Origin: an uncultured Anaerolineales bacterium
Lineage (GTDB): Bacteria > Chloroflexota > Anaerolineae > Anaerolineales > UBA11858
Assembly: GCA_964406305.1 (NCBI GenBank)
Contig: CAYORF010000002.1
Span: 130-64,129, forward strand
Direction: 5' to 3'
Length of the DNA: 64,000 bases
In this document: positions 15,727 to 60,034 of the stretch, in pieces
How the letters are laid out: each line of letters opens with the position of its first letter
How positions within the stretch are numbered: the stretch's first letter is position 1
Notes under the pieces: generated by a model
The model's input: the letters and a program-made list of their open reading frames with translations, nothing else
Database searches by the model: none
What the model was told of the DNA's origin: nothing
Translations under genes and position numbers: made by a program

Positions 15727-15756
15727 GCGTATTTGAGATCGAGACTCATTGTGTGC

Positions 15757-15793
15757 AGCGCGAAACCAACGGTTTCGCGTTTTTTGTTTTTTA
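15757..15793 (+). terminator. Intrinsic terminator (attenuator) upstream of aroH
   Basis: Perfect 9-bp stem CGCGAAACC / loop AAC / stem GGTTTCGCG, followed by TTTTTTGTTTTTT. CCGTTGG (15710-15716, at the 3' end of the leader ORF) is complementary to CCAACGG (15766-15772), which spans the terminator loop and 3' arm. Confidence 0.8.
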
Positions 15794-15810
15794 AGAGGAG
15801 AAATTAATTT

Positions 15811-40579: not shown

Positions 40580-40744
40580 ATGACTATGTGTCCAGAATGC
40601 GCAGCGGAATTAGAATTAGCTCCCGATACAGTTGAGGCCGAGATCATTGTCTGTCCTGATTGCGGTGTGGAGCTGGAAGTGATCAGTCTTGATCCCATTG
40701 AACTAGATCTTGCTCCAGAAGTCGAAGAAGATTGGGGCGAATAG
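40580..40744 (+). CDS. lysW: LysW amino-group carrier protein (54 aa)
   Basis: Encodes [54 protein letters not shown]. It has two CxxC pairs and the acidic EDWGE C-terminus. It is not in the ORF track because it is under 60 aa. Confidence 0.88.
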
Positions 40745-40829
40745 GGTTCACTATGTCCATGATTTCCACGCCGGTGCTTCACCTTCAGTGGGGGAAATAT
40801 ATCCTTATGGAAAGAAAAGAGATGAATTG

Positions 40830-42655: not shown

Positions 42656-43693
42656 ATGATTCAAACTGCTATCGTTGGTGCATCAGGTTATGCAGGAGGA
42701 GAATTGCTTCGGTTGCTGCTTTCCCATCCTGAGATTGAAGTGACGCAGATCACATCAGAAAAGTATGCCAAACAATATGCCTATTTCGTCCATCCTAATC
42801 TTCGTAACCGCACCCAATTAAAGTTTCGAAAATTGGACGAACTTGAATCTGTTGACCTTCTGTTTTTGGCTTTGCCCCATGGCCATGCCATGAAACAGAT
42901 TGAGGTGTTCGCTGAGTTGGGGGAGCGAATTGTGGATTTGTCGGCTGATTTCCGATTAAGTGATCCGGCAAAATATCACCGTTGGTATGAAAAAGAACAT
43001 CTAGCTCCCCAATGGTTGGATCGATTTGTCTATGGCTTACCGGAGCTGCATCGAAAGGAACTAGTTAGCGCTAGATATGCTACTGGAACCGGCTGTAATG
43101 CCATTGTCACCACTTTGGCTCTCTGGCCATTATATAGGCGGGGCTTGGTCCGGGAGACAGTCGTAGAGGTCAAAGTGGGTTCGGCGGAGGGAGGCCATAA
43201 AGTCAACCCTGCTTCCCATCATCCGGAGCGGGCAGGGGTAGTCCGCTCCTACGCACCGGTAGGACATCGACATGTGGCTGAGTTGATCCAGGAGCTGGAC
43301 CTTGCTCCGGAGAAAAAGCGTCTCCATTTTTCAGTCACGTCGGTGGGTATTGTGCGAGGAGCATTGGCGACGTGTCATTGTCTGCTGGATGAGCCATTGG
43401 AGGAAAAAGACGCCTGGCGTTTCTACCGCGAAGATTATGGGGAAGAGCCATTTGTACGCCTTGCCCAGTCAAAGCGAGGCATTCACCGATTTCCGGAACC
43501 CAAAATCCTCTCCGGATCCAATTATTGTGACCTGGGCTTTGCTGCTGACCCAGCCAACAACCGTATGGTCGTCATCGCTGCAATTGATAATTTAATGAAA
43601 GGAGCGGCTGGCAATGCGGTGCAAACGATGAATTTGATGTGTGGATTCCCAGAAACTATGGGTTTGGAGTTCCCCGGCTTGCACCCTATCTAA
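42656..43693 (+). CDS. lysY: LysY/ArgC-type N-acyl-gamma-(amino)acyl-phosphate reductase
   Basis: 345 aa. Starts IVGASGYAGGELLRLL and contains GTGCNA (active-site Cys). Confidence 0.88.
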   Translation: MIQTAIVGASGYAGGELLRLLLSHPEIEVTQITSEKYAKQYAYFVHPNLRNRTQLKFRKLDELESVDLLFLALPHGHAMKQIEVFAELGERIVDLSADFRLSDPAKYHRWYEKEHLAPQWLDRFVYGLPELHRKELVSARYATGTGCNAIVTTLALWPLYRRGLVRETVVEVKVGSAEGGHKVNPASHHPERAGVVRSYAPVGHRHVAELIQELDLAPEKKRLHFSVTSVGIVRGALATCHCLLDEPLEEKDAWRFYREDYGEEPFVRLAQSKRGIHRFPEPKILSGSNYCDLGFAADPANNRMVVIAAIDNLMKGAAGNAVQTMNLMCGFPETMGLEFPGLHPI

Positions 43694-43874: not shown

Positions 43875-44690
43875 ATGATTGTAGTCAAAGCAGGTGGAAA
43901 TAGAGAGCTGGATATTTCGCCTATTTGTGATGATGTGGCTGAATTGATCCAAAAGGGAGAGCAGATTATTCTGGTCCATGGGGGTTCTGGTGAAACCAAC
44001 CGCATCTCCAAAAAATTGGGTAGCCCTCCTCGATTTGTGACCTCACCATCAGGGCATTCCAGCCGCTACACTGACCGGAAAACATGGGAGATTTATGCTA
44101 TGGTTGTAACCGGTCGGATTAACACACTGCTGGTTGAGCGACTGCAGCAATCAGGTGTCAATGCCCTTGGTCTTTCCGGTCTTGATGGTCGGCTTTTAGA
44201 AGGAAAACGCAAATCCTCTTTACGCATTATGGAGAATGGGAAGCCAAAGATGCTGCGAGGAGAGTACAGTGGAATCATTGAGAACGTTAATGTTAGTCTG
44301 CTTCAAATCTTGCTCGACGCCAACTATGTGCCTGTGGTAGCTCCGGTGGCTATCAGTTATCAGAATGAAGGATTGAACGTGGATGGAGATCGGGTGGCAG
44401 CTGCTATTGGTCGTGCCCTTGGGGCAGAACAAGTTATCATCCTTTCCAATGTTCCAGGTCTGTTGCGTGATGTTAATGATGAGGGATCACTGATTCCTTA
44501 TATCCCTGCCCGAGAAGCCAAGGATTATCTTAAGCATTATGCCAAGGGGCGCATGAAACGAAAAGTACTGGGAGCAATTGAAGCACTACAAGGCAGAGTA
44601 AGTCGGGTCATCATCGCAGATGGACGAGTGGAAGCTCCCATCCAACGGGCACTGGCTGGACATGGAACAGTATTTTCAAATGAGCACTAG
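43875..44690 (+). CDS. lysZ: LysZ/ArgB-type amino-acid kinase ([LysW]-aminoadipate/glutamate kinase)
   Basis: 271 aa. Starts MIVVKAGGN and contains ILVHGGS. Confidence 0.88.
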   Translation: MIVVKAGGNRELDISPICDDVAELIQKGEQIILVHGGSGETNRISKKLGSPPRFVTSPSGHSSRYTDRKTWEIYAMVVTGRINTLLVERLQQSGVNALGLSGLDGRLLEGKRKSSLRIMENGKPKMLRGEYSGIIENVNVSLLQILLDANYVPVVAPVAISYQNEGLNVDGDRVAAAIGRALGAEQVIILSNVPGLLRDVNDEGSLIPYIPAREAKDYLKHYAKGRMKRKVLGAIEALQGRVSRVIIADGRVEAPIQRALAGHGTVFSNEH

Positions 44691-44708: not shown

Positions 44709-45872
44709 ATGTGTAAAGATAATATCCAAGAATTCAAAATCATCGAGTCGACCTTACGAGAAGGGGAGCAATTCGTTGGTGCAAATTTTACCACCGGGCA
44801 AAAGATGGAAATTGCTCAGGCCCTTGACGATTTTGGCGTGGAGTATCTGGAACTTACTTCACCCATGGTCTCCCCCCAAAGTTATGAAGATATCAAGCAA
44901 ATTGCAAGTATGGGGCTGAAGGCCAAGATCCTGACCCATATTCGCTGCAGTAAAAGCGACGCGGCTCGGGCATTGGAGCTGCCCTTGGATGGAGTAGATA
45001 TCGTGATCGGAACAAGTTCTATGCTGCGGAAAATTTCCCACGGCAAGGAGATCCCTCAAATCATTGCCTTGGCTGAGGAAGTCATAGCATATATCAAAGA
45101 ACAACGACCTGAGCTGGAGATTCGGTTTAGCACAGAGGATTCCTTTCGAAGCGAGTCGGAAGACCTCTGGGAGGTATATCAGGTGGTTGATAGTATGGGT
45201 ATTGACCGGGTAGGGATTGCCGACACAGTGGGAGTTGCTACGCCCTTTGACGTATACGAACTAGCTTCTAAAATAAAGGGTTTGGTAAATGCCGAGTTGG
45301 AATTTCATGGTCATAACGATTCTGGATGTGCCATCGCAAATAGCTATGCTGCCCTCCTAGCTGGTGTGACTTGCATCGATACCAGCGTGTTAGGGATTGG
45401 GGAGCGAAATGGAATCACACCCCTGGGTGGTTTCATCGCTCGTCTTTATGCCACCGATCCTGATTTCATCCGCAATAAGTATAACCTGAAGACCCTCACG
45501 CGAGTGGACAAATTGGTAGCCGAATTAGTGGGTGTTGACATTCCCTTCAACAACTTCATCACGGGAATCACGGCCTTCACCCACAAAGCCGGCATCCATG
45601 CCAAAGCTATCTTGAACGACCCCCGGACTTATGAAATCATTGACCCCAAAGATTTTGGTCTGAGTCGTTATATATCGGTTGCCCACCGTTTGACCGGTTG
45701 GCATGCCATCAAATTGCGAGCCGAGCAGTTGGGGATTGAAATGAATGAAGAGAAAATCAAACGAGTTACCAGCCATGTCAAGGTGCTTGCTGACGAGAAG
45801 CCATTATCACTGGATGACGTGGATGCTGTTCTCAAACGCTGGGGCAGTAATGGACAAGATTATATAGATTGA
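44709..45872 (+). CDS. hcs: Homocitrate synthase, LYS20/Thermus type
   Basis: 387 aa. Contains [12 protein letters not shown] and [17 protein letters not shown]. Confidence 0.85.
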
Positions 45873-45886
45873 AAAGGAAAGGACCT

Positions 45887-47083
45887 ATGAGCGAACAGAA
45901 ATCATCACAGACAATGGAAGCGTATCCGGAAGAAGGGATGAAATCGAAGATCAAGGGACCGGTGTACATCGATGATACTACCTTACGCGATGGGGAACAA
46001 ACCGCTGGTGTAGTTTTTGCTAATGAGGAAAAAATTCACATTGCCAAAATGTTATCCAGGATTGGGGTTCATCAAATTGAAGTTGGCATTCCAACTATGG
46101 GAGGCGATGAGAAAGAAGCCATCAAACAGATCGTGGATCTTGAACTCCCTACCAGTATTCTCGCTTGGAATCGGGCAGTGATCAGTGACATAAAGCATTC
46201 TCTCGATTGTGGTGTAGATGCTGTGGCTGTCTCTATTTCTGCCTCGGACATCCACATCGAAAACAAGTTGCGCCGGGACCGGCAGTGGGTCTTGGACTCC
46301 ATCCTGAGTGCTGTAGAATTCGCCAAAGACCATCAGCTTTATGTTTCTGTGAATGCTGAGGATGCCTCCCGCGCCGACCCTGAATTCCTGATTGAATTTG
46401 CCAATGCAGCCAAGCAGTCAGGGGCTGACCGGCTCCGTTACTGCGATACAGTCGGCATCCTTGATCCTCTGGAAACCTACAAACGAGTAAAAACCTTGAT
46501 CCAGGAAGTGGATCTGCCGATTGAAATGCACACACATAACGATTTCGGGATGGCCACAGCCAACGCGATTGCCGGACTTGAGGCTGGTGCGACCTATGTT
46601 AATACCACAGTAAATGGATTAGGTGAACGAGCGGGAAATGCCGCTTTGGAAGAATTGGTAATGGCACTTCAATATACTGTAGGAGTCGAGATGGATATCC
46701 AGACCTCGCTTTTCCGTGATCTTGGGGAATATGTCGCTTTGGCTTCAGGGCGTATGCTGCCAGCCTGGAAACCGATTGTGGGAAGCAACCTTTTCGTTTA
46801 CGAATCCGAAGGACGAGCTAGCGGTGTGATCCGCGACCCAACGACGTACGAGATCTTTTGGCCTGGCGAGGTGGGTTTGTTGCGCCGATTCAGTGTAGGA
46901 AAATACTCAGGTCCCAGCGTCATTCGCCGCAAGCTTCGGGAGCAGGGGTATCACCCCTCCAAAGAGGAAGTCCAGAAGCTGGTACCCATCATGCGGTCCC
47001 GCTCGATTGCCTTGAAACGGTCTTTATTTGACAATGAGGTGGTTGAAGTTTATTCAATGTTGAGAGAGAGGAGAGATGTATGA
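45887..47083 (+). CDS. NifV/AksA-like 2-oxoacid:acetyl-CoA condensing enzyme, paralog A
   Basis: Contains [14 protein letters not shown] and HTHNDFGMATANAIAGL. It lacks a LeuA-type C-terminal regulatory domain. I chose the ATG at 45887 behind AAAGGAAAGGA; the track offers a TTG at 45869. Confidence 0.8.
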   Translation: MSEQKSSQTMEAYPEEGMKSKIKGPVYIDDTTLRDGEQTAGVVFANEEKIHIAKMLSRIGVHQIEVGIPTMGGDEKEAIKQIVDLELPTSILAWNRAVISDIKHSLDCGVDAVAVSISASDIHIENKLRRDRQWVLDSILSAVEFAKDHQLYVSVNAEDASRADPEFLIEFANAAKQSGADRLRYCDTVGILDPLETYKRVKTLIQEVDLPIEMHTHNDFGMATANAIAGLEAGATYVNTTVNGLGERAGNAALEELVMALQYTVGVEMDIQTSLFRDLGEYVALASGRMLPAWKPIVGSNLFVYESEGRASGVIRDPTTYEIFWPGEVGLLRRFSVGKYSGPSVIRRKLREQGYHPSKEEVQKLVPIMRSRSIALKRSLFDNEVVEVYSMLRERRDV

Positions 47084-48243
47084 GCAGGTTATCGAACATT
47101 AGATTATTGGATACTACCCTGCGGGACGGAGAACAGGCGGTAGGTGTAATCTTTACTCCTCGAGAGAAAAGGCAAATTTCTTCCATACTGGCGGCCATTG
47201 GCATTCCTGCTGTTGAGGTTGGTTTCCCTGCCTTGGGACCTGAGGAAAAAGCCTGTATTCTTGCTGTTGTGGATGCTGGTATCATGACTAAAGATGGAAA
47301 TCCCTTGGAGGTCAGCGCCTTTGCAAGAGCAAGGCGGGAAGATGTGAAAGATGCAGCTGATTGTCACGTGGATAGTGTCATTATTTCCATTTCTACCTCT
47401 GATACTCATATTGAACGCAAGTTTCAGGCCGATCAAGCGTGGGTCTTAGAACAAGTGAAAGAGGCTGCAGAGGAAGCAGAAAAACACAATCTGGCCTTTA
47501 CTATAAGTGCTGAAGATGCCTCTCGAACTGAACTTAGCTTTTTAATTGAGTTTTTTCGTCTAGCTGAGGAAATCGGGGCTGTGAGGGTGCGCTACTGTGA
47601 CTCCCTGGGTGTTGAGGATCCTTACACCAGCTACCGGCGGATCAAATACATCCGGCAAGAAACTTCCCTTCCTATAGAAGTGCACATGCACAATGATTTT
47701 GGGATGGCCACGGCCAATGTCATGGCTGGGATACGGGCTGGGGCGAGTTCTGTGGTCGGTTCCATTGGAGGACTTGGGGAACGGACAGGTAATTCCCCGA
47801 TAGAAGAGGTAGTGATGGCTTTGAAGCATCTGTACGGAATGGATTTGGGCATTGACACCTCTCAATTCCGTGAAGTGGCTGAATATGTGGCTCAAGCGAG
47901 CCAGCGGGCTATCCCCATCTGGAAAGCCATTGTTGGGACTAATGTTTTTGCCCATGAGTCCGGGATTCACGCAGATGGCATCCTCAAGAACCCAGATAGT
48001 TATGAAGCCTTCAAGCCTGAAGAGGTAGGGTTAGAACGTCAAATTGTGATTGGCAAGCATTCTGGCACCCAGTCGCTGAAGCATAAATTCCTGGCCGGAT
48101 TTAGAATTGAACTGGATGATGAGACGGCCCAGGAATTGCTGGAAAAGGTGCGTTCCACAACCGTGGAGCTTAAGAGGCCGCTTTTCAATAAGGAATTGAT
48201 ACTGTTGTATGAAGACACAAATTCAAAGCCAAGTAAAGAGTGA
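47080..48243 (+). CDS. NifV/AksA-like 2-oxoacid:acetyl-CoA condensing enzyme, paralog B
   Basis: 387 aa. Contains [14 protein letters not shown] and HMHNDFGMATANVMAGI. ATGA overlap with paralog A. Confidence 0.8.
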   Translation: MSRLSNIRLLDTTLRDGEQAVGVIFTPREKRQISSILAAIGIPAVEVGFPALGPEEKACILAVVDAGIMTKDGNPLEVSAFARARREDVKDAADCHVDSVIISISTSDTHIERKFQADQAWVLEQVKEAAEEAEKHNLAFTISAEDASRTELSFLIEFFRLAEEIGAVRVRYCDSLGVEDPYTSYRRIKYIRQETSLPIEVHMHNDFGMATANVMAGIRAGASSVVGSIGGLGERTGNSPIEEVVMALKHLYGMDLGIDTSQFREVAEYVAQASQRAIPIWKAIVGTNVFAHESGIHADGILKNPDSYEAFKPEEVGLERQIVIGKHSGTQSLKHKFLAGFRIELDDETAQELLEKVRSTTVELKRPLFNKELILLYEDTNSKPSKE

Positions 48244-48266
48244 GGAATGACTTTAGGAGTAAAACA

Positions 48267-49511
48267 ATGGGACATACCTTGGCAGAAAAGATTATTGGAA
48301 ACAGGATTGGACGAGAAGTAAAGGTTGATGAGTTTGTGATAGCTCCGGTGGATGTACTCTTTGCTCATGAAGGGACGGGACCATTAGCATTGGACCAATT
48401 AGAAGTAATGGGGAAAGGGAAGATAGCCACCACTGGTCTTTTCTTTTCCGACCACGCAGCACCCCCACCTCGCAAAGAGCTGGCTGATGTTCAAAGACGA
48501 TTACGCTCCTTTGCTGAGGAGGTTGGGGCTGAGTTCCATCAGCCAGGAACGGGAATCTGCCACCAGCTGGTGGCAGAAGAATGGGCCATTCCAGGACAAA
48601 TCATAATTGGTGCTGATTCCCACACTTGTAGTGCTGGTGCGTTGGGCGCTTTCGGCACTGGTATGGGATCTACAGATGTTGCTATCGCTCTGGCTTTGGG
48701 TAAGATTTGGCTCCGGATTCCTGAGACCATCCGGGTTGAGATTCATGGGCAGCTGCCAAAAGGTGTTTACGCCAAAGATGTGATCTTGCATTTAATCGGG
48801 TACCTTGGAGCAGATGGAGCGATCTATAAAGCCCTGGAATACGGGGGTCCGACTGTGGATGCGATGAGCATCGAGGAACGGTTGACCCTGGCAAATATGG
48901 CTGTTGAGGCGGGGGCGAAAGCCGGCCTGTGCGCTGCCGACGAGACTACCCGGGAATATTTGGAAAAGCGAGGGCGCGTTCAAGATTACCAGGCGATTGA
49001 ACCGGACCCGGATGCTCATTACGAAAGAGTGGTCGAACTGGATGTCAGCCAGATCACCCCTCAGGTTGCTTTCCCCCACTTTGTGGATAATATTCACTCC
49101 ATCGAAGAGGTAGAGGAGATACCCCTTGACCAGGTGTTTATTGGCACCTGCACCAATGGGCGGTTATCTGATCTTCGGGTAGCAGCTCAGATATTGAAAG
49201 GGGAACAGATTGACCCTCGTCTGCGGCTGTTGGTGGGACCGGCTTCCCGCCAGGTATACAAGGATGCAATTAAAGAGGGGCTGATCGACATATTTATCGA
49301 TGCCGGAGGCACAATCCTTCCCCCGGGATGCGGGCCTTGTGTGGGCGTTCATCAAGGCGTACTGGCCGAGGGAGAACGCTGTCTTTCCACCCAGAATCGG
49401 AATTTCAAAGGGCGGATGGGCAATCCGGAGTCTGAGATCTATTTGGCTTCACCAGCAACGGCAGCTGCATCGGCGATCACGGGTATTATCACAGATCCAC
49501 GAACCTTGTAA
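48267..49511 (+). CDS. hacA: Homoaconitase / isopropylmalate-isomerase-type large subunit (short archaeal-like form)
   Basis: Starts MGHTLAEKII behind AGGAG. Contains GADSHT, GTCTNGR and CGPCVG cluster-ligand motifs. Confidence 0.85.
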   Translation: MGHTLAEKIIGNRIGREVKVDEFVIAPVDVLFAHEGTGPLALDQLEVMGKGKIATTGLFFSDHAAPPPRKELADVQRRLRSFAEEVGAEFHQPGTGICHQLVAEEWAIPGQIIIGADSHTCSAGALGAFGTGMGSTDVAIALALGKIWLRIPETIRVEIHGQLPKGVYAKDVILHLIGYLGADGAIYKALEYGGPTVDAMSIEERLTLANMAVEAGAKAGLCAADETTREYLEKRGRVQDYQAIEPDPDAHYERVVELDVSQITPQVAFPHFVDNIHSIEEVEEIPLDQVFIGTCTNGRLSDLRVAAQILKGEQIDPRLRLLVGPASRQVYKDAIKEGLIDIFIDAGGTILPPGCGPCVGVHQGVLAEGERCLSTQNRNFKGRMGNPESEIYLASPATAAASAITGIITDPRTL

Positions 49512-49538
49512 GGTAACAGGAAATCAGTGGAGGAAAAC

Positions 49539-50039
49539 ATGGAAAAAATCATTCAAGGTCCTATCTGGCGTTTTGGGGATGGGATCAGCACCGATCACAT
49601 CACACCAGGTAGGTATTACCACCTCCGGGGTGATCTCTCAGCTTTGGCTAAACATACTCTAGAAGATGAAAATCCGGACTTTGCTCAGAACGCCAAACCG
49701 GGTGACATCATAGCCGCCGGTAAGAACTTTGGACAAGGATCCTCCCGAGAACATGCCGCGTTGGTGCTCAAAGAGAGGGGTATTCTAGCTGTATTATCCC
49801 CTTCATTCGCCCGTATCTTTTATCGCAATGCTGTCAATGTGGGTGTCCTCCCCATCATCTGTGAGACAGAGGGCTTTCAGGATGGTGACGCAATCCGGAT
49901 TGATTTGGCAGAAGGTCAGGTTACAAATCTGACCCAGAACTTAGTACACCCATTTTCTCCACTTCCTCCTATCATGAGGGAGATCCTGGAGGATGGAGGC
50001 CTTGTCCCCCATGTGCTAGAACGAGGAGGGTTGGGATGA
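49539..50039 (+). CDS. hacB: Homoaconitase-type small subunit
   Basis: Contains NFGQGSSREHAALVL. The ATG at 49539 lies 5 nt after GGAGG. Confidence 0.85.
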   Translation: MEKIIQGPIWRFGDGISTDHITPGRYYHLRGDLSALAKHTLEDENPDFAQNAKPGDIIAAGKNFGQGSSREHAALVLKERGILAVLSPSFARIFYRNAVNVGVLPIICETEGFQDGDAIRIDLAEGQVTNLTQNLVHPFSPLPPIMREILEDGGLVPHVLERGGLG

Positions 50040-51043
50040 GTTCTCATGAAGTGGTGCTAATCCCCGGGGATGGCATCGGCCCAGAGGTAGCAAGCGCAGC
50101 GCAGGCTGTGATCGATGCCACCGGAGTCGATATCAGATGGCATACTTACCAGGCAGGCATCGCTTCCCTGGAGGAGGGAGACAGATCCTTACCTGAGGAG
50201 CTCCTGGAGGCTATCCGCCAATATGGCATCGCGCTGAAAGGGCCCCTCACTACCCCCGTTGGGGGCGGTTTTTCCAGCGTGAATGTGGCTCTCCGCCAGC
50301 GGTTGGGGCTATACGCTAATCTGCGCCCAGTGCGGACTATCCCGGGAGCCCCCAGCCGGTACCAGGACGTAGACCTGGTCATTATCCGGGAGAACACGGA
50401 AGGCCTCTATAGCGGCGATGAGCGCTGGGAAGACGACGATTCGGTAGTAGGGTTGAAAAGGGTCACACGGGAGGCCAGTCTCCGCATCGCCCGATTCGCC
50501 TTCAACTTTGCTTCCCAGCACGGTCGCGGAAAGGTCACCGCTACCCACAAGGCCAATATACTTAAGGAGTCCGATGGGCTTTTCCTGACCTGTGCCCGGG
50601 AGGTAGCCAAAGCCTATCCTCAGGTCCATTTTACGGATCGCATTATTGACGCACTGTGCATGGACCTGGTGATGGATCCCAACCAACATGATGTTTTATT
50701 ATGCCCCAATCTTTACGGAGACATCATTTCCGACTTAGCAGCAGGACTTGTGGGCGGGTTAGGCAATGTCCCTAGCGCCAACATCGGCCAAGATGCTGCT
50801 ATCTTTGAAGCTGTACATGGCTCCGCACCTGACATCGTTGGTAAAGGGATCGCCAATCCCACGGCACTAGTTTTGGCCGGGGTAATGATGCTCTCTCATT
50901 TAGGAGAGGATGAAGCAGCCGAGAAATTGTCAAAGAGCGTGCGAAACCTGTATGAGAGTGGTGGACCGCTAACCCCTGATTTAGGTGGGGAGGCTACAAC
51001 CGAGGACATGACGCGAGAGTTGGTATCGAACTTAAAACTATAG
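50036..51043 (+). CDS. Homoisocitrate / isocitrate-family beta-decarboxylating dehydrogenase
   Basis: 335 aa. Contains IPGDGIGPEV and NLYGDIISD. ATGA overlap with hacB. Confidence 0.85.
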   Translation: MSSHEVVLIPGDGIGPEVASAAQAVIDATGVDIRWHTYQAGIASLEEGDRSLPEELLEAIRQYGIALKGPLTTPVGGGFSSVNVALRQRLGLYANLRPVRTIPGAPSRYQDVDLVIIRENTEGLYSGDERWEDDDSVVGLKRVTREASLRIARFAFNFASQHGRGKVTATHKANILKESDGLFLTCAREVAKAYPQVHFTDRIIDALCMDLVMDPNQHDVLLCPNLYGDIISDLAAGLVGGLGNVPSANIGQDAAIFEAVHGSAPDIVGKGIANPTALVLAGVMMLSHLGEDEAAEKLSKSVRNLYESGGPLTPDLGGEATTEDMTRELVSNLKL

Positions 51044-51082: not shown

Positions 51083-52858
51083 ATGGGAATACAACCAGAC
51101 GAGTTTAAGTTACTAGAAGATAAAGCCATCATTTATTCCACTGGCAGGATCTGTGAGACATCTGGTGAATTTCTCAGGAGTCAACCATTCAGAACCTTTC
51201 TGGAAACTGTTTTGGGGAATCTTACTGATAGAAATTCACGCCTGATAAACATTTTTAGCTCTCACCCCATTAATGAAAAGACCATCACACTCTTAATTGA
51301 TATCTTTTATTATCTGACCATATTAGACCAAAGTGTGATTCCTAATATCCTACCTGAGTCGGAAGTGTTTTTTAAAGATCCAAATCTTTTAACTGAATTT
51401 GTCGAATACTTGTATAACGCCTGGCGTGATTACGATCGGATACTCATCGTCTCCGGCTTTCAGGGAGAAGCGTTAGACGACAGGCCGTACCGGACGTTCA
51501 ACGAAACCGTGGAGAAGTTGATGCATTTAGTCAGGGGAACCTATCGAGACATTAAAGAAAACATCGATAGACAGCATCCTCGTATTTTTCGTCAGGCCAG
51601 GGCTGGGGTGAACATTGCCACTATTGTCTCGAAGAAAGCTTTCATGTCAGCATGGGTGGATGACTTTGGTCCTCCATACACAAAATTGCAGCCAATTCCC
51701 ATCATCCGGCATGTGCTGTTGTATCCCCCGCTGGTACTTAATCCACCCATGAACCGGCGAACTGGACAATTTCAGCGTGTGGACGAGAACCCCCTGGATC
51801 GAATAGAACTCAATCAGGGAGAGTGGATCTGCTATCCTGCAAAGGTTGGGGAGTTGCTGATTACGACCTATATCCATGAGAAATTTCTCGAATTAGGGCT
51901 TTCTCTATGCAACCTGTTTGAACTTGCCAGCGATGAGGATCTGGAAAAACAACCAGACGCTGTGTATTTGTTTGGCGTACCAGGGGACGTCCTAGATTGT
52001 TATGGATCGCTGCCCACGGTTTTCTATGATGACCAGGAGGGGGATATATTGGTGGGTGCTGTCCCCAACGAGGACCGTTTCGGTTATTTTGGGTATTTGA
52101 AGAAGATGATACTGACTTTACACAACATTAAGATGATGAAAAGAGGTCGCATGCCATTTCATGGAGCGATGGTCGAAATCATATTGAATGACAAGACCAA
52201 CACCATTGTCCTCGTCGGCGATAGTGGTGCAGGGAAATCTGAGACATTGGAGGCTTTCCGGGTGTTGTGTGAAGGTGAGCTCCAGGACATGGTCATCATT
52301 GCGGATGACATGGGTACGATCAATATCGAAAACGGAATAGCAAAGGGATATGGCACGGAGATTGGTGCCTTTATCCGTTTGGATGATTTGCAGCCAGGGT
52401 ACGAGTTTGGGCAGATGGGACGAGCTATATTTATGAGCCCAAACAAAACCAATGCCCGGCTATTGCTGCCAGTGGTCTCACATCTTGATGTAGTGCGAGG
52501 GAGCAAGATTGATATGATCTTCTACGCCAATAACTACCAGGAGGTGAATGAGGATTATCAGATCATCGAGCGCTTTAGCGACAGTGAGTCAGCCCTGGAG
52601 GTGTTCCGGGAAGGAATAGTAATGAGTAAGGGGACAACTACATCGGAGGGTATTACCAAGACCTATTTTGCAAATGTCTTCGGTCCTCCACAATACAAGG
52701 ACTTGCATGAGGAAATTGCCCAATCAACTTTCGAACACCTCTTTGATCAGGATGTTTTCTTGGGTCAAATCAGGACCCGGCTGGGGCTTCCAGGCTGGGA
52801 AATAAAGGGTCCGGAAGCTGCAGCCCGGGCGATGATTGAATTAATTACAGAAGCTTAG
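51083..52858 (+). CDS. Hypothetical 591-aa protein with a C-terminal HprK/PEPCK-like P-loop kinase region and an unrecognised N-terminal 350 aa
   Basis: Contains MPFHGAMVEIILNDKTNTIVLVGDSGAGKSETLEAF (P-loop at nt 52217-52243), followed by MVIIADDMGTI and GYGTEIGAFIRL. This string order resembles the HPr kinase/phosphorylase and ATP-PEPCK nucleotide-binding cores. Confidence 0.6.
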   Translation: MGIQPDEFKLLEDKAIIYSTGRICETSGEFLRSQPFRTFLETVLGNLTDRNSRLINIFSSHPINEKTITLLIDIFYYLTILDQSVIPNILPESEVFFKDPNLLTEFVEYLYNAWRDYDRILIVSGFQGEALDDRPYRTFNETVEKLMHLVRGTYRDIKENIDRQHPRIFRQARAGVNIATIVSKKAFMSAWVDDFGPPYTKLQPIPIIRHVLLYPPLVLNPPMNRRTGQFQRVDENPLDRIELNQGEWICYPAKVGELLITTYIHEKFLELGLSLCNLFELASDEDLEKQPDAVYLFGVPGDVLDCYGSLPTVFYDDQEGDILVGAVPNEDRFGYFGYLKKMILTLHNIKMMKRGRMPFHGAMVEIILNDKTNTIVLVGDSGAGKSETLEAFRVLCEGELQDMVIIADDMGTINIENGIAKGYGTEIGAFIRLDDLQPGYEFGQMGRAIFMSPNKTNARLLLPVVSHLDVVRGSKIDMIFYANNYQEVNEDYQIIERFSDSESALEVFREGIVMSKGTTTSEGITKTYFANVFGPPQYKDLHEEIAQSTFEHLFDQDVFLGQIRTRLGLPGWEIKGPEAAARAMIELITEA

Positions 52859-52944: not shown

Positions 52945-54141
52945 ATGGTAACAAAGCAAACGACGTCAGCGGAAGATTTGATTGCCCTGGAGGACCAGTA
53001 TTCGAGTGGGGTTGCTCCTAAACAACCCATCGTCCTGAGCCGGGGGGAGGGAGCCCGCCTCTGGGATGTGGAAGGGATCGAATATGTGGACTGCACCAGT
53101 GGTCACGGTGTAGCAAATGTGGGACATGCTAACCCTGTTATTATTGAGGCTATAACTCAGCAAGCAAGACAGTTGATTACTGCCCCGAATGATTTTTACA
53201 ATGACAAACGTGCCCAACTCTTATCAGAGTTGGTGCGCATCGCTCCGGATGGGTTAGAGCGCGCTTTCCTGTGCAACTCCGGGGCAGAAGCAGTAGAGGG
53301 AGCAATTAAATTCGCTCGGCTTGCCACCAGCAGGACCAAGATCATTTCCACCAAGCGAGGTTTTCATGGTCGGACATTGGGAGCACTATCCGCTACCTGG
53401 AATAAATCCTATCGGAAACCTTTTGAGCCGCTGGTATCCGGCTTTGAGTTTGTTCCTTATAATCAGCTGGAACAAATAAAGCGGGTGGTGGACGAAGAAA
53501 CAGCAGCTGTCATCATAGAGGTTGTCCAAGGGGAAGGTGGTGTTTTCCCAGCTAAAGTTGAGTTTTTATATGGCGTGCAAACCTTGTGCCGAGCCAATGG
53601 GGCACTGTTAATTCTTGATGAGGTACAAACCGGGTTCGGCCGGACAGGGAAGATGTTTGCTTGTGAACACTTTAATCTGGAGCCGGATTTGATGACTGTG
53701 GCGAAGGGTATAGCTGGTGGTGTGCCCATGGGTGCGGTGTTGATTGGTGCTCGGGTGGGGGATTTACCCAAAAAGATCCATGGTTCTACCTTTGGGGGTA
53801 ATGCGCTAGCGTGTGCAGCAGCCCTGGCAACGATCAATTTTATTGAGTCCGAGGATCTCCCCCAGCGGGCGGCCGAATTGGGAGAGCGGCTCATGGATGG
53901 ATTAAGAGCCATTGACTCTCCGGTTGTACGAGAAGTGCGGGGTTTAGGTTTGATGGTCGGTATGCAATTAAAGATGAGAGCCGGCAAATATTTAGCAAAA
54001 CTTGCAGAACCGATGGATGGATTGGGTGTGCTGGCCCTTTCAGCAGGTTCAACCGTGATGCGGTTCTTGCCCCCACTGGTGATCAGTGAGGATGATGTGG
54101 ATTTAGTTGTGAGCCGGGTGGAAGAAGTTTTTAAGGATTAG
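52945..54141 (+). CDS. lysJ: LysJ/ArgD-type class III aminotransferase
   Basis: Contains SGHGVANVGHANP, LILDEVQTGFGRTGK and TVAKGIAGG. I chose the start at the ATG behind AGGAGA; the track ORF starts at 52870. Confidence 0.88.
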   Translation: MVTKQTTSAEDLIALEDQYSSGVAPKQPIVLSRGEGARLWDVEGIEYVDCTSGHGVANVGHANPVIIEAITQQARQLITAPNDFYNDKRAQLLSELVRIAPDGLERAFLCNSGAEAVEGAIKFARLATSRTKIISTKRGFHGRTLGALSATWNKSYRKPFEPLVSGFEFVPYNQLEQIKRVVDEETAAVIIEVVQGEGGVFPAKVEFLYGVQTLCRANGALLILDEVQTGFGRTGKMFACEHFNLEPDLMTVAKGIAGGVPMGAVLIGARVGDLPKKIHGSTFGGNALACAAALATINFIESEDLPQRAAELGERLMDGLRAIDSPVVREVRGLGLMVGMQLKMRAGKYLAKLAEPMDGLGVLALSAGSTVMRFLPPLVISEDDVDLVVSRVEEVFKD

Positions 54142-54143
54142 AA

Positions 54144-55199
54144 ATGACAGCTGATGGAATTGCGTTTCTGGAAGAGTTGCTCCGTATACCCAGCCTTTCT
54201 GGCCAGGAAGATGCCTTTGCTGACTATCTCCTCCAGCAGATGAAGAGGTTTGGCTTTCGAGCGCACCGTGACCAGGTGGGAAATGTCATCGGAGAGGTAG
54301 GCAATCCACAAGCGAGTAAGACCCTTGCCCTGTTGGGTCATATGGATACAGTGCCCGGGGAGATCCATGTCCGCCGGGCAGAGGGATGCCTATACGGACG
54401 CGGTTCAGTGGATGCTAAAGGACCGCTGGCAGCATTTGTGCTGGCTGCAGCGCAGGTACAGTCTCAATTAGACGACACTCGCGTGTTGGTGATTGGCGCT
54501 GTAGAAGAGGAGGCTCATTCGCGGGGAGCGCACCACCTGACAGAGACTCTAAAACCGCCTGATGGTGTCATCATAGGTGAACCCAGTAGTTGGCAAAGCA
54601 TTACCTTGGGCTACAAAGGAACATTGAGTGTGAATTACCAACTGACCCAAGCAGCCGGACATTCTGCTGGTAATCAATCTCCGCCGGCAGAGGAGGCGGT
54701 TGCTTTCTGGAACCGATTGGTCGAGTATACCGCTGAATATAACCAAGACCGCCGACCACCGTGTTTTGACACACTTGATCACAACTTGCGCTCCTTTTGC
54801 ACCCAAAGCGATGGGTTGGAAGATAGCGCCCAGATGGAGATCGGACTCCGATTACCATTGGGTTTGAAAGAATCTTCCCTCAAGAAGGAAATTCGGGGAT
54901 GGAGTGATGGACCAAGAGTGACTTTTCCATACAGCGAACCTCCATTCCGGACAGAGAAGAATACGTCGGTCGTGAGAGCGCTGTTACGAGCCATCCGCTC
55001 CGCGGGAGGTCAGCCCCGGTTTAAACTAAAGACTGGAACCTCGGATATGAACGTGGTTGGTCCAGTCTGGGGTTGTCCTATTGCAGCTTATGGACCTGGT
55101 GACTCTAATCTTGATCATTCACCGGATGAGCACATCCGTATCAGTGAGTTCCAAAGAGGTGTCATGGTTCTTGCCAAAATGATAACCTATTGGCAGTAA
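54144..55199 (+). CDS. lysK: LysK/ArgE-type M20 deacylase ([LysW]-lysine/ornithine hydrolase)
   Basis: 351 aa. Contains LLGHMDTVPG and GRGSVDAKG motifs. Confidence 0.85.
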   Translation: MTADGIAFLEELLRIPSLSGQEDAFADYLLQQMKRFGFRAHRDQVGNVIGEVGNPQASKTLALLGHMDTVPGEIHVRRAEGCLYGRGSVDAKGPLAAFVLAAAQVQSQLDDTRVLVIGAVEEEAHSRGAHHLTETLKPPDGVIIGEPSSWQSITLGYKGTLSVNYQLTQAAGHSAGNQSPPAEEAVAFWNRLVEYTAEYNQDRRPPCFDTLDHNLRSFCTQSDGLEDSAQMEIGLRLPLGLKESSLKKEIRGWSDGPRVTFPYSEPPFRTEKNTSVVRALLRAIRSAGGQPRFKLKTGTSDMNVVGPVWGCPIAAYGPGDSNLDHSPDEHIRISEFQRGVMVLAKMITYWQ

Positions 55200-55854: not shown

Positions 55855-57378
55855 ATGATGGTGCATTCTGTTTCAAAACCGAAGAATGATTTTAACCTTC
55901 TCCCTGTGACACGAGAAATCCCAGGTGATTTGGATTCACCTCTCTCAGTGTACCTTAAGCTGGTTGGGGATGGACCTTCCTTTTTACTGGAAAGTGTCAC
56001 CGGCGGAAACCATGTCGCACGTTACTCATTTATTGGGACTGCGTTGAACCATGCCTATGTAATCCGCGGTCAAACTTTAGAGCACCATACTCCCCAGGGT
56101 ATTGAGAGCATTCACACCAATAAAGAGGGGGATATCTTAGGTAGATTGAAAACAGAATTGGAAAAGTATAAGCAAAAGAATGTTCCCAACTTGCCCCGAT
56201 TTACTGGAGGGCTTGTGGGATATTTGGGATACGACTCAATCCGTTATTTTGAGCCCCGGGTTCAGCTTTCTCCACATCCTGAACTGCCTGATGGTATCTT
56301 CTTATTGGCCGACACGATAGTCGCCTACGATCATGCTTTTGGACGCTTGGTATTAATTACCAATGTCCCCTTTAATGGAGACCTGGAGCAGGCTACCACC
56401 CTAGCAAAAACACGTTTAGACCAGCTGGAAGCGCGTTTGAAAAAGCCTCTCTCTCTAAAATCCGAAATAGGCCCAGTCCACCAAACTACTGAACTGCGCT
56501 CTAACATGAGTGAGGATCAATTTTCTCAGATTGTGTTCCAAGCTAAAGACCATATTGTCGCCGGAGATATTTTTCAGGTCGTACTTGCCCAACGTTTAAG
56601 CAGAGAAACGACAGCATCTCCCATAAATATTTACCGTGCCCTTCGTCGCCTCAATCCTTCTCCATATATGTTCCATTTGAACTTTGGAAATTTGGTTTCT
56701 CAGGAAGACTCCTTCCACCTGATTGGTGCTTCGCCTGAAATGCACGCCCGTCTGGAGAGTCAGCTGGCAACCCTTCGGCCGATTGCAGGAACCCGGCCCA
56801 GAGGACAAACTTCCCAAGAGGATGAAACCCTGGCTGGCCAACTCCTTGCGGATCCCAAAGAACGCGCTGAGCATGTCATGCTGGTCGATCTCGGCCGTAA
56901 TGACCTGGGGCGTGTGTGTAACTATGGCACAGTGCAAGTCACCGAAAGGATGGCTATTGAGCGTTATTCTCATGTGATGCATATTGCCTCTCAGGTTGAA
57001 GGACACTTGCACTCATCGAAGGATGCTTTTGACTTGCTTAGGGCCACTTTCCCGGCCGGGACGGTCAGCGGAGCACCAAAAATTCGAGCTATGCAAATCA
57101 TTCATGCTTTAGAGCAGGAACCCCGCGGTCCGTATGCTGGGGTGGTGGGTTATTTCTCTTTCAATGGATCCCTTGACACCTGCATCACGATTCGGACCAT
57201 AGTAATGCAGGATCAGAAGGTAAACATCACCGCCGGAGCAGGGATCGTGGCTGATTCAGACCCAAAGAGAGAATATAAGGAAACGCTCAATAAGGCTCAA
57301 GCATTGGCAGTCGCTGTTGATAAGGCGGAAGAGTTGAGCGAGTTAGATGGTACTCAGAACACAAGGATAAACGGATGA
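55855..57378 (+). CDS. trpE: Anthranilate synthase component I
   Basis: 507 aa. Contains LLESV, FPAGTVSGAPK and GAGIVADSDP motifs. Confidence 0.94.
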   Translation: MMVHSVSKPKNDFNLLPVTREIPGDLDSPLSVYLKLVGDGPSFLLESVTGGNHVARYSFIGTALNHAYVIRGQTLEHHTPQGIESIHTNKEGDILGRLKTELEKYKQKNVPNLPRFTGGLVGYLGYDSIRYFEPRVQLSPHPELPDGIFLLADTIVAYDHAFGRLVLITNVPFNGDLEQATTLAKTRLDQLEARLKKPLSLKSEIGPVHQTTELRSNMSEDQFSQIVFQAKDHIVAGDIFQVVLAQRLSRETTASPINIYRALRRLNPSPYMFHLNFGNLVSQEDSFHLIGASPEMHARLESQLATLRPIAGTRPRGQTSQEDETLAGQLLADPKERAEHVMLVDLGRNDLGRVCNYGTVQVTERMAIERYSHVMHIASQVEGHLHSSKDAFDLLRATFPAGTVSGAPKIRAMQIIHALEQEPRGPYAGVVGYFSFNGSLDTCITIRTIVMQDQKVNITAGAGIVADSDPKREYKETLNKAQALAVAVDKAEELSELDGTQNTRING

Positions 57379-57956
57379 TCGCGGTTATTGATAATTATGA
57401 TTCATTTACCTATAACTTGGTTCAGTACATTGGAGAACTGGGAGAAGAAGTAGTTGTTTATCGGAACGACGCAGTTTCCATCCCAGTCTTAGAAAACCAA
57501 AAGCCTGGCGCAATTTTGATTTCTCCGGGTCCAGGAAGGCCCTCGGACGCTGGAATCTCTTCCGAGGTGATTCTTACTCTTGGGAGATACATTCCCCTCC
57601 TGGGAGTTTGTCTAGGACATCAATGTATCGCTGAAGCCTTTGGGGGGGTTGTGAAACGCGCCTCTACCCTGATGCATGGGAAAACATCAATGATTCATCA
57701 CAATTCCAGCCCCATCTTCCAGGATATTCCCACCCCTTTCGAAGCTACTCGCTATCATTCCTTGATTGTAGTACAGGAGGGTTTCCCTCCAGAATTAGAG
57801 GTCACTGCCACCACACAGAAGGGTGAAATTATGGCTCTTCATCACAGAGAATACCCCATATTTGGGGTGCAGTTTCATCCCGAATCTTTCCTCACCACTC
57901 ACGGGAAAAAGCTGCTGGAGAATTTTCTGACTATTAACGGGCAGGGAAATCAATGA
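57375..57956 (+). CDS. trpG: Anthranilate synthase component II (glutamine amidotransferase)
   Basis: 193 aa. Contains ISPGPGRP, GVCLGHQ and FHPES. Confidence 0.93.
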   Translation: MIAVIDNYDSFTYNLVQYIGELGEEVVVYRNDAVSIPVLENQKPGAILISPGPGRPSDAGISSEVILTLGRYIPLLGVCLGHQCIAEAFGGVVKRASTLMHGKTSMIHHNSSPIFQDIPTPFEATRYHSLIVVQEGFPPELEVTATTQKGEIMALHHREYPIFGVQFHPESFLTTHGKKLLENFLTINGQGNQ

Positions 57957-58150
57957 CAAACAAAAAGACATTAAAAGACTAGTATTTAGACTTCGATCCT
58001 CTCGATAACCTGGAGCGCTTCAAAAGAATCATTGGTCATTTCCGTCTTTTAACAGTCAAAAGAGATCAAATAGATATGACACCAAGACTAGATCAAACGA
58101 ACAGAAAAAGCTCAATATTCATTATCCGATGTATGTAAGAGGAGGTTCCC

Positions 58151-59176
58151 ATGCTTAAACCTTACATATCCAAAGTCCTTGGTTTCCAGGACTTGAGTGC
58201 AGAAGAAGCCGAATCTGCGATGGAAGTTATCATGACAGGACAAGCAACACCAGCCCAGATCGGTGGCTATCTGATCGCACTGCGTATGAAAGGAGAGACG
58301 GTCCCGGAAATTACTGGCAGTGCAAGAGCGATGCGGAAGGTAGTCAAACAAGTTCAAGTAAAAACCAACGGAAAAAAGCTAATCGATACTGCTGGTACGG
58401 GTGGTGATGGCGCCCACACTTTCAACATCTCAACTATAGCAGCCTTTGTCGTTGCTGGAGCGGACCGCAAAGTGGCCAAACATGGCAATCGCAGCATATC
58501 CTCTCGCTGCGGTAGCGCTGATGTCCTTGAGGAATTGGGTCTTAATCTCAGTTTATCACCAGAACAGGTCAGGACCTGCATTGAGAAAGTAGGTATAGGT
58601 TTTATGTTTGCACCGAACTTTCACCCTGCTATGAAACATGCCGTTGGGCCCCGAAGAGAATTGGGCCAACGAACCGTATTTAACGTCTTAGGACCTCTTA
58701 CCAATCCCGCAAACGCAGCCTATCAACTGGTGGGTGTTTTTGACCCTAAACTTACCCATCCCCTGGCAGAAGTTTTAGGAGAATTGGGAGGGAAAGCTGC
58801 TTTTGTGGTCCACAGCCACCACGGATATGATGAGCTCACAACTTGCGGGCCCAATCAGATCAGTCACCTAAAGGATGGGAAAGTCACTACCTTTGAACTT
58901 GATGCTAAAGACTTTGGGTTGCGGGAGTGTTCTCCACAAGAACTCCAAGGCGGTGATCCCCGAGAAAACGCTCAAATGCTGAGGGCGATATTATCGATAG
59001 AAGATGACAGCCCCCGCCAAGATGTCGTGCTCTTGAATGCAGCAGCAGCTTTGGCTGCAGAAAGCGGTGATCTCCATGAAGGACTCACTGAAGCGCGCCA
59101 GTCCCTGGTTAGTGGTGCTGCGCTAGAAAAACTCAACGCCCTAATCTCCACCAGCCAAAGCTTCCCAAGTGATTGA
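58151..59176 (+). CDS. trpD: Anthranilate phosphoribosyltransferase
   Basis: 341 aa. Contains DTAGTGGDGAHTFNIST and KHGNRS. Confidence 0.94.
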   Translation: MLKPYISKVLGFQDLSAEEAESAMEVIMTGQATPAQIGGYLIALRMKGETVPEITGSARAMRKVVKQVQVKTNGKKLIDTAGTGGDGAHTFNISTIAAFVVAGADRKVAKHGNRSISSRCGSADVLEELGLNLSLSPEQVRTCIEKVGIGFMFAPNFHPAMKHAVGPRRELGQRTVFNVLGPLTNPANAAYQLVGVFDPKLTHPLAEVLGELGGKAAFVVHSHHGYDELTTCGPNQISHLKDGKVTTFELDAKDFGLRECSPQELQGGDPRENAQMLRAILSIEDDSPRQDVVLLNAAAALAAESGDLHEGLTEARQSLVSGAALEKLNALISTSQSFPSD

Positions 59177-59218
59177 TGGTAAATGTTACTCCCACCTGCA
59201 AGGAAAATGGTATAGATC

Positions 59219-60034
59219 ATGAGCATCTTGGAAGAAATCTTTGCCCACAAACGTACTGAAGTCGAAGCCGCAAAACGGAAAGTATCGGAAGAAGCGCTAT
59301 ATCAACAAGCCCAAGAGATGACAGCACCGATAGATTTTTTAGCTGTTCTCCAAGGAGTGAGGTATTCCAGGGAAGTAGATGAGCGGAAGAGGTGTACTCC
59401 TCGACTGATTGCTGAAGTAAAACATCGTTCTCCCAGTAAAGGCGTTCTTCGCCAGCCCTTTGATCCCCTGCAATTCGCCCAAACCTATGCAGCCCACGGT
59501 GCTTCCGCAATCTCCGTTCTCACCGATGAAACCTATTTTGGCGGATCCCTTGGTATTCTGCAGCAAATTGCCAACTTAGATCTTGGTCTCCCTCTTCTGA
59601 GGAAGGATTTCGTCTTCGATCGTTACCAATTGCTTGAAGCCCGGGCTTTTGGGGCTAGCTCGGTGCTCTTGATTGTAGCTATGTTGAAACAAGAGCAATT
59701 AAACGATCTTATCAACGCTGCTGCTGATCTTGAGCTCACCGCCCTGGTGGAAGTCCACTCTCGGGAAGAGCTCCTGCAAGCCCTTGAAACAAAGGCAAGG
59801 TTGATTGGAATTAATAACCGTGATCTTCATACCTTCCAGGTCAATCTGGAAACAACTCTCCAGTTGATCCCCCTTCTTCCACCTGATATCTGTCTAGTCT
59901 CGGAAAGCGGTATTTATACACGCGAGGATGTGAAACTTCTGGCGGAGGTCGGGGTGGATGCTATTCTGGTTGGAGAGAGTCTCATCAGAGCAGAAAACGT
60001 AGCAGCTCAAGTAAAAGAGCTTACTCAAATATGA
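59219..60034 (+). CDS. trpC: Indole-3-glycerol-phosphate synthase
   Basis: 271 aa. Contains IAEVKHRSPSKG and LIGINNRDL. Confidence 0.93.
   Translation: MSILEEIFAHKRTEVEAAKRKVSEEALYQQAQEMTAPIDFLAVLQGVRYSREVDERKRCTPRLIAEVKHRSPSKGVLRQPFDPLQFAQTYAAHGASAISVLTDETYFGGSLGILQQIANLDLGLPLLRKDFVFDRYQLLEARAFGASSVLLIVAMLKQEQLNDLINAAADLELTALVEVHSREELLQALETKARLIGINNRDLHTFQVNLETTLQLIPLLPPDICLVSESGIYTREDVKLLAEVGVDAILVGESLIRAENVAAQVKELTQI

Follow-up and report, generated by a model that had tools for sequence, protein, structure and literature searches.

A divergent phosphoenolpyruvate carboxykinase-like protein family with a member in a LysW lysine operon of Anaerolineales

We analysed a gene, here called T, in a 64,000-nucleotide (nt) stretch of DNA (the window; positions 130 to 64,129 of the forward strand of contig CAYORF010000002.1, GenBank assembly GCA_964406305.1) from an uncultured Anaerolineales bacterium of the Chloroflexota. 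T is an open reading frame (ORF) of 591 amino acids (aa) with an ATG start at 51083..52858, located on the same strand as, and between, a gene for an isocitrate/homoisocitrate dehydrogenase-like protein (IDH/HICDH-like) and lysJ. The IDH/HICDH-like gene ends at 51043, 39 nt before T, and lysJ follows T after 86 nt with the lysJ ATG at 52945 or after 11 nt with the first ATG at 52870. A Shine–Dalgarno sequence, GGAGAAAG, precedes the ATG at 52945, and the LysJ model match starts at residue 37 of the longer lysJ ORF. No terminator-like sites were seen between T and its flanking genes. The genes around T form a LysW/aminoadipate operon: LysX, LysZ ([LysW]-aminoadipate kinase), the LysS-type homocitrate synthase and LysK ([LysW]-lysine hydrolase) all exceed their NCBIfam cut-offs, and a LysW ORF is present. 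The initial annotation of this DNA, made from the sequence alone, had described the same ORF, gaps (the second with the later lysJ start) and operon, and had quoted a peptide that is found exactly at residues 357–435 of T. It had also recognised a P-loop core like that of HPr kinase/phosphorylase (HprK/P) and phosphoenolpyruvate (PEP) carboxykinase (PEPCK). This is right and can be extended, as the whole of T is predicted to have the PEPCK fold together with the active-site residues of a small-molecule enzyme.

The AlphaFold2 model of T, computed with 38 homologs, has a mean predicted local distance difference test (pLDDT) value of 81.6 and a predicted TM-score (pTM) of 0.83. A Foldseek comparison with the PDB, a check that the initial annotation had proposed, returned PEP carboxykinases of the ATP or GTP type as all of the 50 best matches listed, with E-values of 4e-14 to 2e-11 and 358–531 aligned columns. 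Since these alignments are longer than the ~260-residue C-terminal part, the N-domain of T is PEPCK-like too, and the model has the two-domain PEPCK fold, with an N-terminal domain and a P-loop nucleotide domain. In agreement with this, hhalign aligned the family profile of T (106 members) with E. coli Pck at a probability of 79% and an E-value of 1.6e-5 over 409 columns; T has ~9 additional residues from the P-loop lysine to the DD motif compared with PEPCK. In the profile searches that had likewise been proposed, the sole specific matches, to Pfam PEPCK_ATP and NCBIfam PRK09344, are sub-threshold and cover residues 335–436 only, all others being generic P-loop noise. Hpr_kinase_C and Hpr_kinase_N gave no match in the Pfam scan even at E≤10. 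Sequence searches of the PDB, with the single T sequence or with the family profile, found only chance P-loop matches to ABC transporters. The kinship of T with PEPCK is thus revealed only by structure comparison and profile–profile alignment.

Active-site residues were mapped on E. coli Pck, whose numbering was checked on the actual sequence, and conservation was scored in 69 diverse family representatives that are 25–48% identical to T. In PEPCK, K213, H232 and D269 bind Mn2+, the P-loop residues K254/T255 together with K288 bind the Mg-nucleotide phosphates, and Y207 and R333 bind the oxaloacetate/PEP moiety, with R333 binding both substrate and phosphate. Judged by alignment and motif order, T keeps this catalytic set of Mn2+, Mg-nucleotide-phosphate and oxaloacetate/PEP residues, as well as the lid (Table 1). 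By hhalign, Y335 corresponds to the substrate-site tyrosine Y207, G337 to G209 and K340/K341 to K212/K213; Y335 and K340 are kept in at least 95% of the representatives and K341 in at least 85%. H360 follows K341 at the same distance, 19 residues, as H232 follows K213. In the P-loop, G379-S381-K385-S386 correspond to G248-S250-K254-T255, and the kinase-1a motif GxSGxGK(T/S) is present. The equivalence of D408/D409 to D268/D269 is proposed from the hhADD motif (IIADD, 405–409), with a small register difference between hhalign runs. Each of the Mn ligands K341, H360 and D409 is kept in at least 85% of the representatives. Motif comparison pairs E426, G428 and R432 with E282, G284 and K288, with conservation of at least 95% for the first two and of at least 85% for R432. 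Further downstream, the lid of E. coli Pck, AKLAGTERGITEP, is aligned by hhalign with SKGTTTSEGITKT in T. The loop concerned, residues 513–529, has the lowest confidence in the whole model (pLDDT <50), and its residues V513–T519 and G523 are invariant among close relatives. Invariance combined with low pLDDT would be expected of a mobile loop at the active site. In the N-domain, H165 and P166 of the segment aligned to the R65 loop are invariant among close relatives, R167 is conserved and R170 is kept in at least 85% of the representatives. The YxGxxKK motif at 335–341, NxR at 457–459, the lid-like loop and the whole-protein fold all extend beyond the core, outside which the initial annotation had recognised nothing.

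Among known systems, ATP-PEPCK (PckA; E. coli, Thermus thermophilus 2PC9/1J3B) is closest, giving the best structural matches (E ~4e-14, up to 460 columns) and sharing with T the order and spacing YxGxxKK...H...GxSGxGK(S/T)...DD...ExG...(K/R)...NxR...lid. It is also similar in size, with 540 aa against 591 aa. However, the two are only 13–17% identical, and T differs in falling below the family cut-offs, in its N-domain addition and in the variable R65 position. GTP-PEPCK (PckG/PCK1; M. tuberculosis 4WIE, C. glutamicum 2ZCI, rat/chicken) matches T over up to 531 columns with an E-value of ~1e-12 and has the common active-site layout of the superfamily, but at 10–13% identity, with a root-mean-square deviation of 6–12 Å and without a sequence-level match. 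HprK/P is a member of the PEPCK-like P-loop superfamily, and the run of H-G, hydrophobic strand, GDSGxGKSE, hhADD and ExG in T comes near its signature. GxSGxGKSE and hhADD are, however, common to the superfamily and insufficient for HprK/P membership. HprK/P lacks the PEPCK-type N-domain, the YxGxxKK Mn/substrate motif, NxR and the lid, all of which T has, and is absent among the 50 Foldseek matches listed. The pyrophosphate (PPi)-dependent PEPCK of Entamoeba, Propionibacterium and Actinomyces provides a precedent for a divergent class with another phosphoryl donor that is missed by standard models. At ~1100–1200 aa it is about twice as long as T, and it is not among the 50 structural matches listed either.

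T had been called an orphan, which it is not; it belongs to a large, distinct and uncharacterised family of bacterial enzymes. In a cluster search that scored 8000 candidates, at least 6966 clusters (90% identity) match T at E≤1e-3, and identity to T over the full length is still ~55% in those from Anaerolineae, Omnitrophota, KSB1, Atribacterota and Victivallales. An exhaustive search of 50%-identity representatives gave 537 matches, 142 of them at E≤1e-30, and full-length family members reach down to 25–30% identity. Relatives occur in several hundred species of more than ten mostly anaerobic phyla. In a one-genome-per-species collection, at least 583 stretches encode one (loci are given below as L numbers), and the best 80 of these are spread over more than ten phyla. 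They include Chloroflexota, Omnitrophota, Bacteroidota, Planctomycetota, Spirochaetota, Actinomycetota, Atribacterota, Negativicutes (Pelosinus, Propionispora), Thermodesulfobacteriota and Neomarinimicrobiota. Precomputed Pfam domains are absent from all of the family matches, neither Pfam nor NCBIfam has a model for the family, and an NCBIfam scan of ten distant members (25–30% identity) gave zero matches. Names in databases are inconsistent (hypothetical, EcfA2, phosphoenolpyruvate carboxykinase), the last being used by RefSeq for the members from Atrimonas thermophila and Thermatribacter velox. The T family clearly belongs to the PEPCK superfamily but fails the curated PEPCK models, and no experimental study of it was found.

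Across phyla, the surroundings of T vary. It has no same-strand neighbour within 150 nt, and so looks monocistronic, in 38 of the 73 loci in which both neighbours are visible. All-against-all clustering of the ORFs called in 80 loci, with up to 10 kb per side, yielded no conserved cross-phylum operon partner, only lineage-level synteny outside Anaerolineales, which in Bacteroidales has T flanked by divergent genes. When 60 close neighbours on the same strand were scanned with Pfam, each family was seen in two loci at most. With LysX, LysY, LysZ, LysJ, LysK, the homocitrate synthases, HacAB and IDH of the window as queries, tblastn matches were confined to the Anaerolineales group, with one exception, an IDH-like gene in a Planctomycetales locus (L049). 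In the loci outside the Anaerolineales clade described below, which represent more than ten phyla, no lysine genes lie within 10 kb of T. The co-occurrence with lysW, lysX and homocitrate synthase genes across phyla, which the initial annotation had put up for checking, is thus limited to that one clade. Whether or not they are encoded in a lysine operon, T proteins are equally similar to each other and have the same invariant residues.

The sole cross-phylum recurrent neighbour is an MpsC-like gene (PF10057/DUF2294, ~120–150 aa), which in seven loci directly precedes T on the same strand. The seven represent at least three T lineages, in Spirochaetota/Leptospirales, Thermodesulfobacteriota and Planctomycetota. 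A link of T to inorganic-carbon uptake through this neighbour was considered and rejected, as Fan et al. 2019 (PMC6689103) show that MpsAB functions without mpsC and that the two lack synteny outside staphylococci. As published work thus places mpsC outside the MpsAB bicarbonate transporter, nothing can be inferred from the name MpsC. In one such locus, in a Planctomycetales metagenome-assembled genome (MAG; L049, 4337–8408), the MpsC-like gene, T, a gene for a gamma-carbonic-anhydrase/CcmM-like hexapeptide protein and the IDH-like gene all lie on one strand. No riboswitch or leader RNA was found upstream of T in 26 loci at Rfam gathering thresholds. A c-di-GMP-I (cyclic di-GMP) riboswitch (74 bits) is found at 11883–11967 in a Pelosinus MAG (L060), ~190 nt 3' of the T stop, and presumably controls the next gene, not T.

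The picture is different in one Anaerolineales clade, defined by relatives with at least 62% identity to T and comprising 13 distinct loci (L083 and L084 are contigs near-identical to L082). T is linked to a NifV-like module in 10 of the 13, in three arrangements, with T as the final gene of the block in every case. In the first arrangement (window, L082, L087), the block is part of a full LysW operon. In the second (L085), the order is LysW-LysX-LysX-LysY-LysZ-NifV1-NifV2-T-LysJ-LysK, without HacAB, the IDH-like gene and the LysS-type synthase, so that T lies between NifV2 and lysJ. The third (L003–L006, L088, L089) is a six-gene block, NifV1-NifV2-HacA-HacB-IDH-T, which has no LysW genes within 10 kb and looks like a 2-oxoacid synthesis operon. 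The region upstream of this block (in L003 the block spans ~4.7–11.8 kb) is an intergenic region of ~270–360 nt. L001, L002 and L086, which are just as close (67–69% identical to T), show no linkage. In the linked loci, the NifV pair is present in 10 of 10 and HacAB-IDH in 9 of 10, against 4 of 10 for the LysW machinery, which makes the NifV pair and HacAB-IDH the constant partners of T. T is flanked by genes of the LysW pathway in the window, L082 (with L083 and L084), L085 and L087, and in no other locus. The intergenic gaps are short, 12–91 nt. The operon position, from which the initial annotation had argued for a functional link, persists within this clade but not beyond it. As for the LysW operons themselves, the window gene order from LysW to LysS recurs in L082 and L085 by Pfam labels. 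Between lysJ and lysK, L082 carries AICARFT/IMPCHase (purH-like) pieces (13030–15146) and L087 a carbamoyl-phosphate-synthase large subunit (11070–15903), which indicates that the LysW operon accepts unrelated insertions.

We favour, with about an even chance of being right, the reading that T is a cytosolic, divergent enzyme of the PEPCK superfamily that most likely interconverts oxaloacetate and PEP and that, in this clade, probably supplies the module with oxaloacetate. In PEPCK, Y207 and the lid serve CO2/enolate chemistry, not generic kinase activity, and the retention of equivalents of Y207, R333 and the lid makes oxaloacetate/PEP interconversion the most likely reaction of T. In the mechanism proposed, the phosphoryl donor (ATP, GTP or PPi) would sit on the P-loop, a 2-oxo acid or enolate would chelate the Mn2+ site and the lid would shut over the active site. 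Phosphoryl transfer would then be coupled to (de)carboxylation, most likely as oxaloacetate + nucleoside triphosphate <-> PEP + CO2 + nucleoside diphosphate. In most other bacteria, T would be a stand-alone gene of central metabolism. The number of clusters, the ~55% identity across phyla, the frequent monocistronic setting and the RefSeq names together give a distribution that fits a housekeeping enzyme.

In the one Anaerolineales clade, T would have been recruited to the 3' end of the module of two NifV-like genes, HacAB and the IDH-like gene, where it would work in the carboxylating direction, from PEP to oxaloacetate. The route would continue from oxaloacetate to citrate, 2-oxoglutarate, homocitrate and 2-oxoadipate and feed LysW-dependent lysine synthesis, one NifV paralog making citrate and the other homocitrate, and HacAB and the IDH/HICDH-like dehydrogenase serving both the citrate and the homocitrate round. 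Such a division of labour between the paralogs would be possible in view of the Re-citrate synthases resembling homocitrate synthases that have been reported for Anaerolineae and Dehalococcoides (PMC3971608). We put this PEP-to-2-oxoadipate route forward as a hypothesis with modest support. Both the linkage to the NifV pair (with HacAB and IDH) and the carbonic-anhydrase-like and IDH-like neighbours in L049 fit oxaloacetate/2-oxoglutarate chemistry.

Several observations weigh against T as an oxaloacetate/PEP enzyme. The matches to the PEPCK models fall short of their cut-offs, with 18.3 bits against 26.5 for PEPCK_ATP (PF01293) and 23.8 bits against 369 for PRK09344 (NF006821), and the Foldseek TM-scores are only 0.40–0.52. 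The N-domain carries ~90 additional helical residues in the model. Residue 164, which is aligned in a low-confidence region to R65, the residue that binds the oxaloacetate/PEP carboxylate in E. coli Pck, varies. No counterparts of the adenine-pocket residues (E. coli R449, I452, T455) could be recognised in the weak C-terminal alignment, in which the aligned basic position is R, K, Q, E or M among close relatives. A literature search for the T family, or for the PEPCK of Atribacterota, Omnitrophota or Anaerolineae, found nothing relevant, and the role of T as oxaloacetate supplier in the operon is one that we infer. Finally, a canonical ATP-PEPCK is encoded 7 kb from T in an Omnitrophota locus (L048, 1805–3403, reverse strand). 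This gene is 66% identical to E. coli Pck (range 57–67%) and is split over several frames; as its neighbouring genes are also fragmented, the frameshifts are probably assembly errors of this long-read MAG. T can thus coexist with PEPCK and is not simply its replacement.

The main rival to the PEPCK reading, possible though rather doubtful, is that T applies the same Mn2+, P-loop and lid machinery to another 2-oxo acid or enol, perhaps with another donor, for example in a pyruvate-kinase-like reaction or in a (de)carboxylating phosphotransfer on a (homo)citrate/2-oxoacid-module intermediate such as oxalosuccinate or oxaloglutarate. The canonical enzyme in L048 speaks for such a difference in substrate, although two PEPCK isozymes per genome are not unusual. 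The R65 position is unconserved while R119, R155, R170 and R226 of the N-domain are conserved, and the helical insertion in that domain goes along with moderate TM-scores. The P-loop, GDSGAGKSE, is of the HprK/P type, and HprK/P accepts PPi. The constant pairing of T with two NifV-like synthases in the clade would suit another 2-oxo acid as well, but 2-oxoacid-elongation genes are not near most members of the family. Moreover, all confidently mapped PEPCK-specific residues are kept, including the Y207 equivalent and the lid. More broadly, T may, though this is less likely than not, define a fourth, hitherto unrecognised PEPCK-like class beside the ATP, GTP and PPi types, which would be widespread in anaerobic bacteria, have its own donor or 2-oxo-acid substrate, work alongside canonical PEPCK and be wired to the PEP–2-oxoadipate route in Anaerolineales.

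The operon position could also be without functional meaning, which we likewise regard as possible though rather doubtful. A housekeeping T would have landed once 3' of NifV-HacAB-IDH in an Anaerolineales ancestor and been carried along since, with the LysW genes of the window assembled later around the NifV-HacAB-IDH-T block. This would account for a linkage limited to a single clade at 62% identity or more, for the unlinked close relatives L001, L002 and L086, and for contexts elsewhere that are highly variable and often monocistronic. However, the linkage outlasts three rearrangements, L085 keeping T between NifV2 and lysJ even in the absence of HacAB-IDH; the intergenic gaps are short; and an IDH-like neighbour occurs independently in the Planctomycetales locus L049.

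Very improbable is the proposal of the initial annotation that T adds a kinase or phosphorylase to the lysine pathway, with LysW or another pathway protein as its target, or that it catalyses a missing step. The same holds if the target is taken to be an intermediate bound to LysW or, in analogy to AceK or HprK/P, the IDH/HICDH-like dehydrogenase encoded next to T. The tight packing of T in the window operon with a terminator on neither side, its place in the LysW operons of L082, L085 and L087 (one with a different gene order), the IDH-like gene adjoining it in two phyla and a P-loop very near that of HprK/P would fit, but lysine genes are missing near T outside the clade, six clade loci have NifV-NifV-HacAB-IDH-T without LysW genes, 38 of 73 loci look monocistronic, none of the 60 neighbours examined is a recurrent partner, the constant partners in the clade are NifV-like rather than LysW genes, the HPr kinase models are unmatched, and conservation is the same inside and outside lysine operons. 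The Mn ligands, the Y207 equivalent and the lid make up a small-molecule PEPCK site, not that of a protein kinase, which together with the distribution makes a LysW-directed or regulatory kinase unlikely.

If T is a working PEP/oxaloacetate enzyme, or a PEPCK fold with a new substrate or donor, the PEP–pyruvate–oxaloacetate node of many uncultured anaerobes has been misreconstructed. The family has thousands of members, including those of Anaerolineae, Omnitrophota, Atribacterota, Planctomycetota, environmental Bacteroidales, Spirochaetota and Negativicutes. The Anaerolineales operons would, moreover, connect anaplerosis in a concrete way with Re-citrate/homocitrate-type synthases and with lysine synthesis by the aminoadipate pathway.

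Table 1. Positions of T, its motifs and the surrounding operon genes in the window, and of MpsC-like genes in other loci. Residue numbers on the right of an equals sign are those of E. coli Pck.
Feature	Coordinates	Strand	Remarks
Gene T (591-aa PEPCK-like protein)	51083..52858	+	ORF, ATG start
DRQHPRIFRQ, residues 162–171 (family consensus TGxHPRIYRQ)	51566..51595	+	hhalign to R65 loop TGRSPKDKY, low-confidence region
YFGYLKK, residues 335–341 = Y207–K213	52085..52105	+	hhalign, YxGxxKK motif
H360 = Mn ligand H232	52160..52162	+	hhalign
P-loop GDSGAGKSE, residues 379–387 = G248–T256	52217..52243	+	hhalign
D408-D409 after hydrophobic strand = proposed D268/D269 (kinase-2; D269 Mn ligand)	52304..52309	+	motif order, conservation
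EIGAFIR, residues 426–432 = E282–K288 (FEGGCYAK)	52358..52378	+	motif comparison
N457-A-R459 = N331-T-R333	52451..52459	+	hhalign; at least 85% conserved
Lid-like loop, residues 513–529, VMSKGTTTSEGITKTYF	52619..52669	+	aligned to Pck lid AKLAGTERGITEP (389–401)
LysW ORF, C-terminal ...EDWGE	~40580–40744	+	
LysX-like ATP-grasp	40710–41765	+	
LysX	41759–42634	+	above NCBIfam cut-off
LysY/ArgC-type reductase	42656–43693	+	
LysZ	43875–44690	+	above NCBIfam cut-off
LysS-type homocitrate synthase	44709–45872	+	462 bits vs cut-off 414
Two tandem NifV-like (homo)citrate synthases	45869–47083, 47080–48243	+	NCBIfam TIGR02660, 485 and 446 bits vs cut-off 463
HacA-like	48240–49511	+	
HacA partner small subunit (HacB)	49527–50039	+	
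IDH/HICDH-like dehydrogenase	50036–51043	+	directly upstream of T
LysJ-like aminotransferase	52870 or 52945 to 54141	+	downstream of T
LysK, [LysW]-lysine hydrolase	54144–55199	+	downstream of T and LysJ
MpsC-like gene, L021	9429–9776		
MpsC-like gene, L045	3828–4184		
MpsC-like gene, L049	4337–4708		
MpsC-like gene, L050	1822–2175		
MpsC-like gene, L056	8162–8539		
MpsC-like gene, L062	9306–9653		
MpsC-like gene, L067	8235–8591		

Some further features of the window were noted. Its operon has three homocitrate-synthase-like genes in tandem (44709–48243), one LysS-type and two NifV-type, the latter sharing ~45% identity. In other Anaerolineales the NifV pair also occurs without a LysS-type gene, and in the LysW operon of L085 it is the sole synthase; it may represent a Re-citrate synthase, a homocitrate synthase or a heteromer. 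Upstream of lysW lie counterparts of argG and argH (37876–39138 and 39190–40563), identified solely by synteny with and similarity to L085, and downstream of it are two LysX-like ATP-grasp genes. These arg genes and the two LysX-like genes suggest that lysine and arginine synthesis may share a LysW-dependent (LysX/ArgX) system. A second LeuA/LeuC/LeuD/LeuB-like set (6924–8564, 8795–10237, 10260–10895 and 12589–13677) is paralogous to the homocitrate synthase, Hac and IDH genes of the operon. A trpE-G-D-C-like cluster follows immediately 3' of lysK (55855–60034), and the window as a whole is densely packed with genes for amino-acid biosynthesis.

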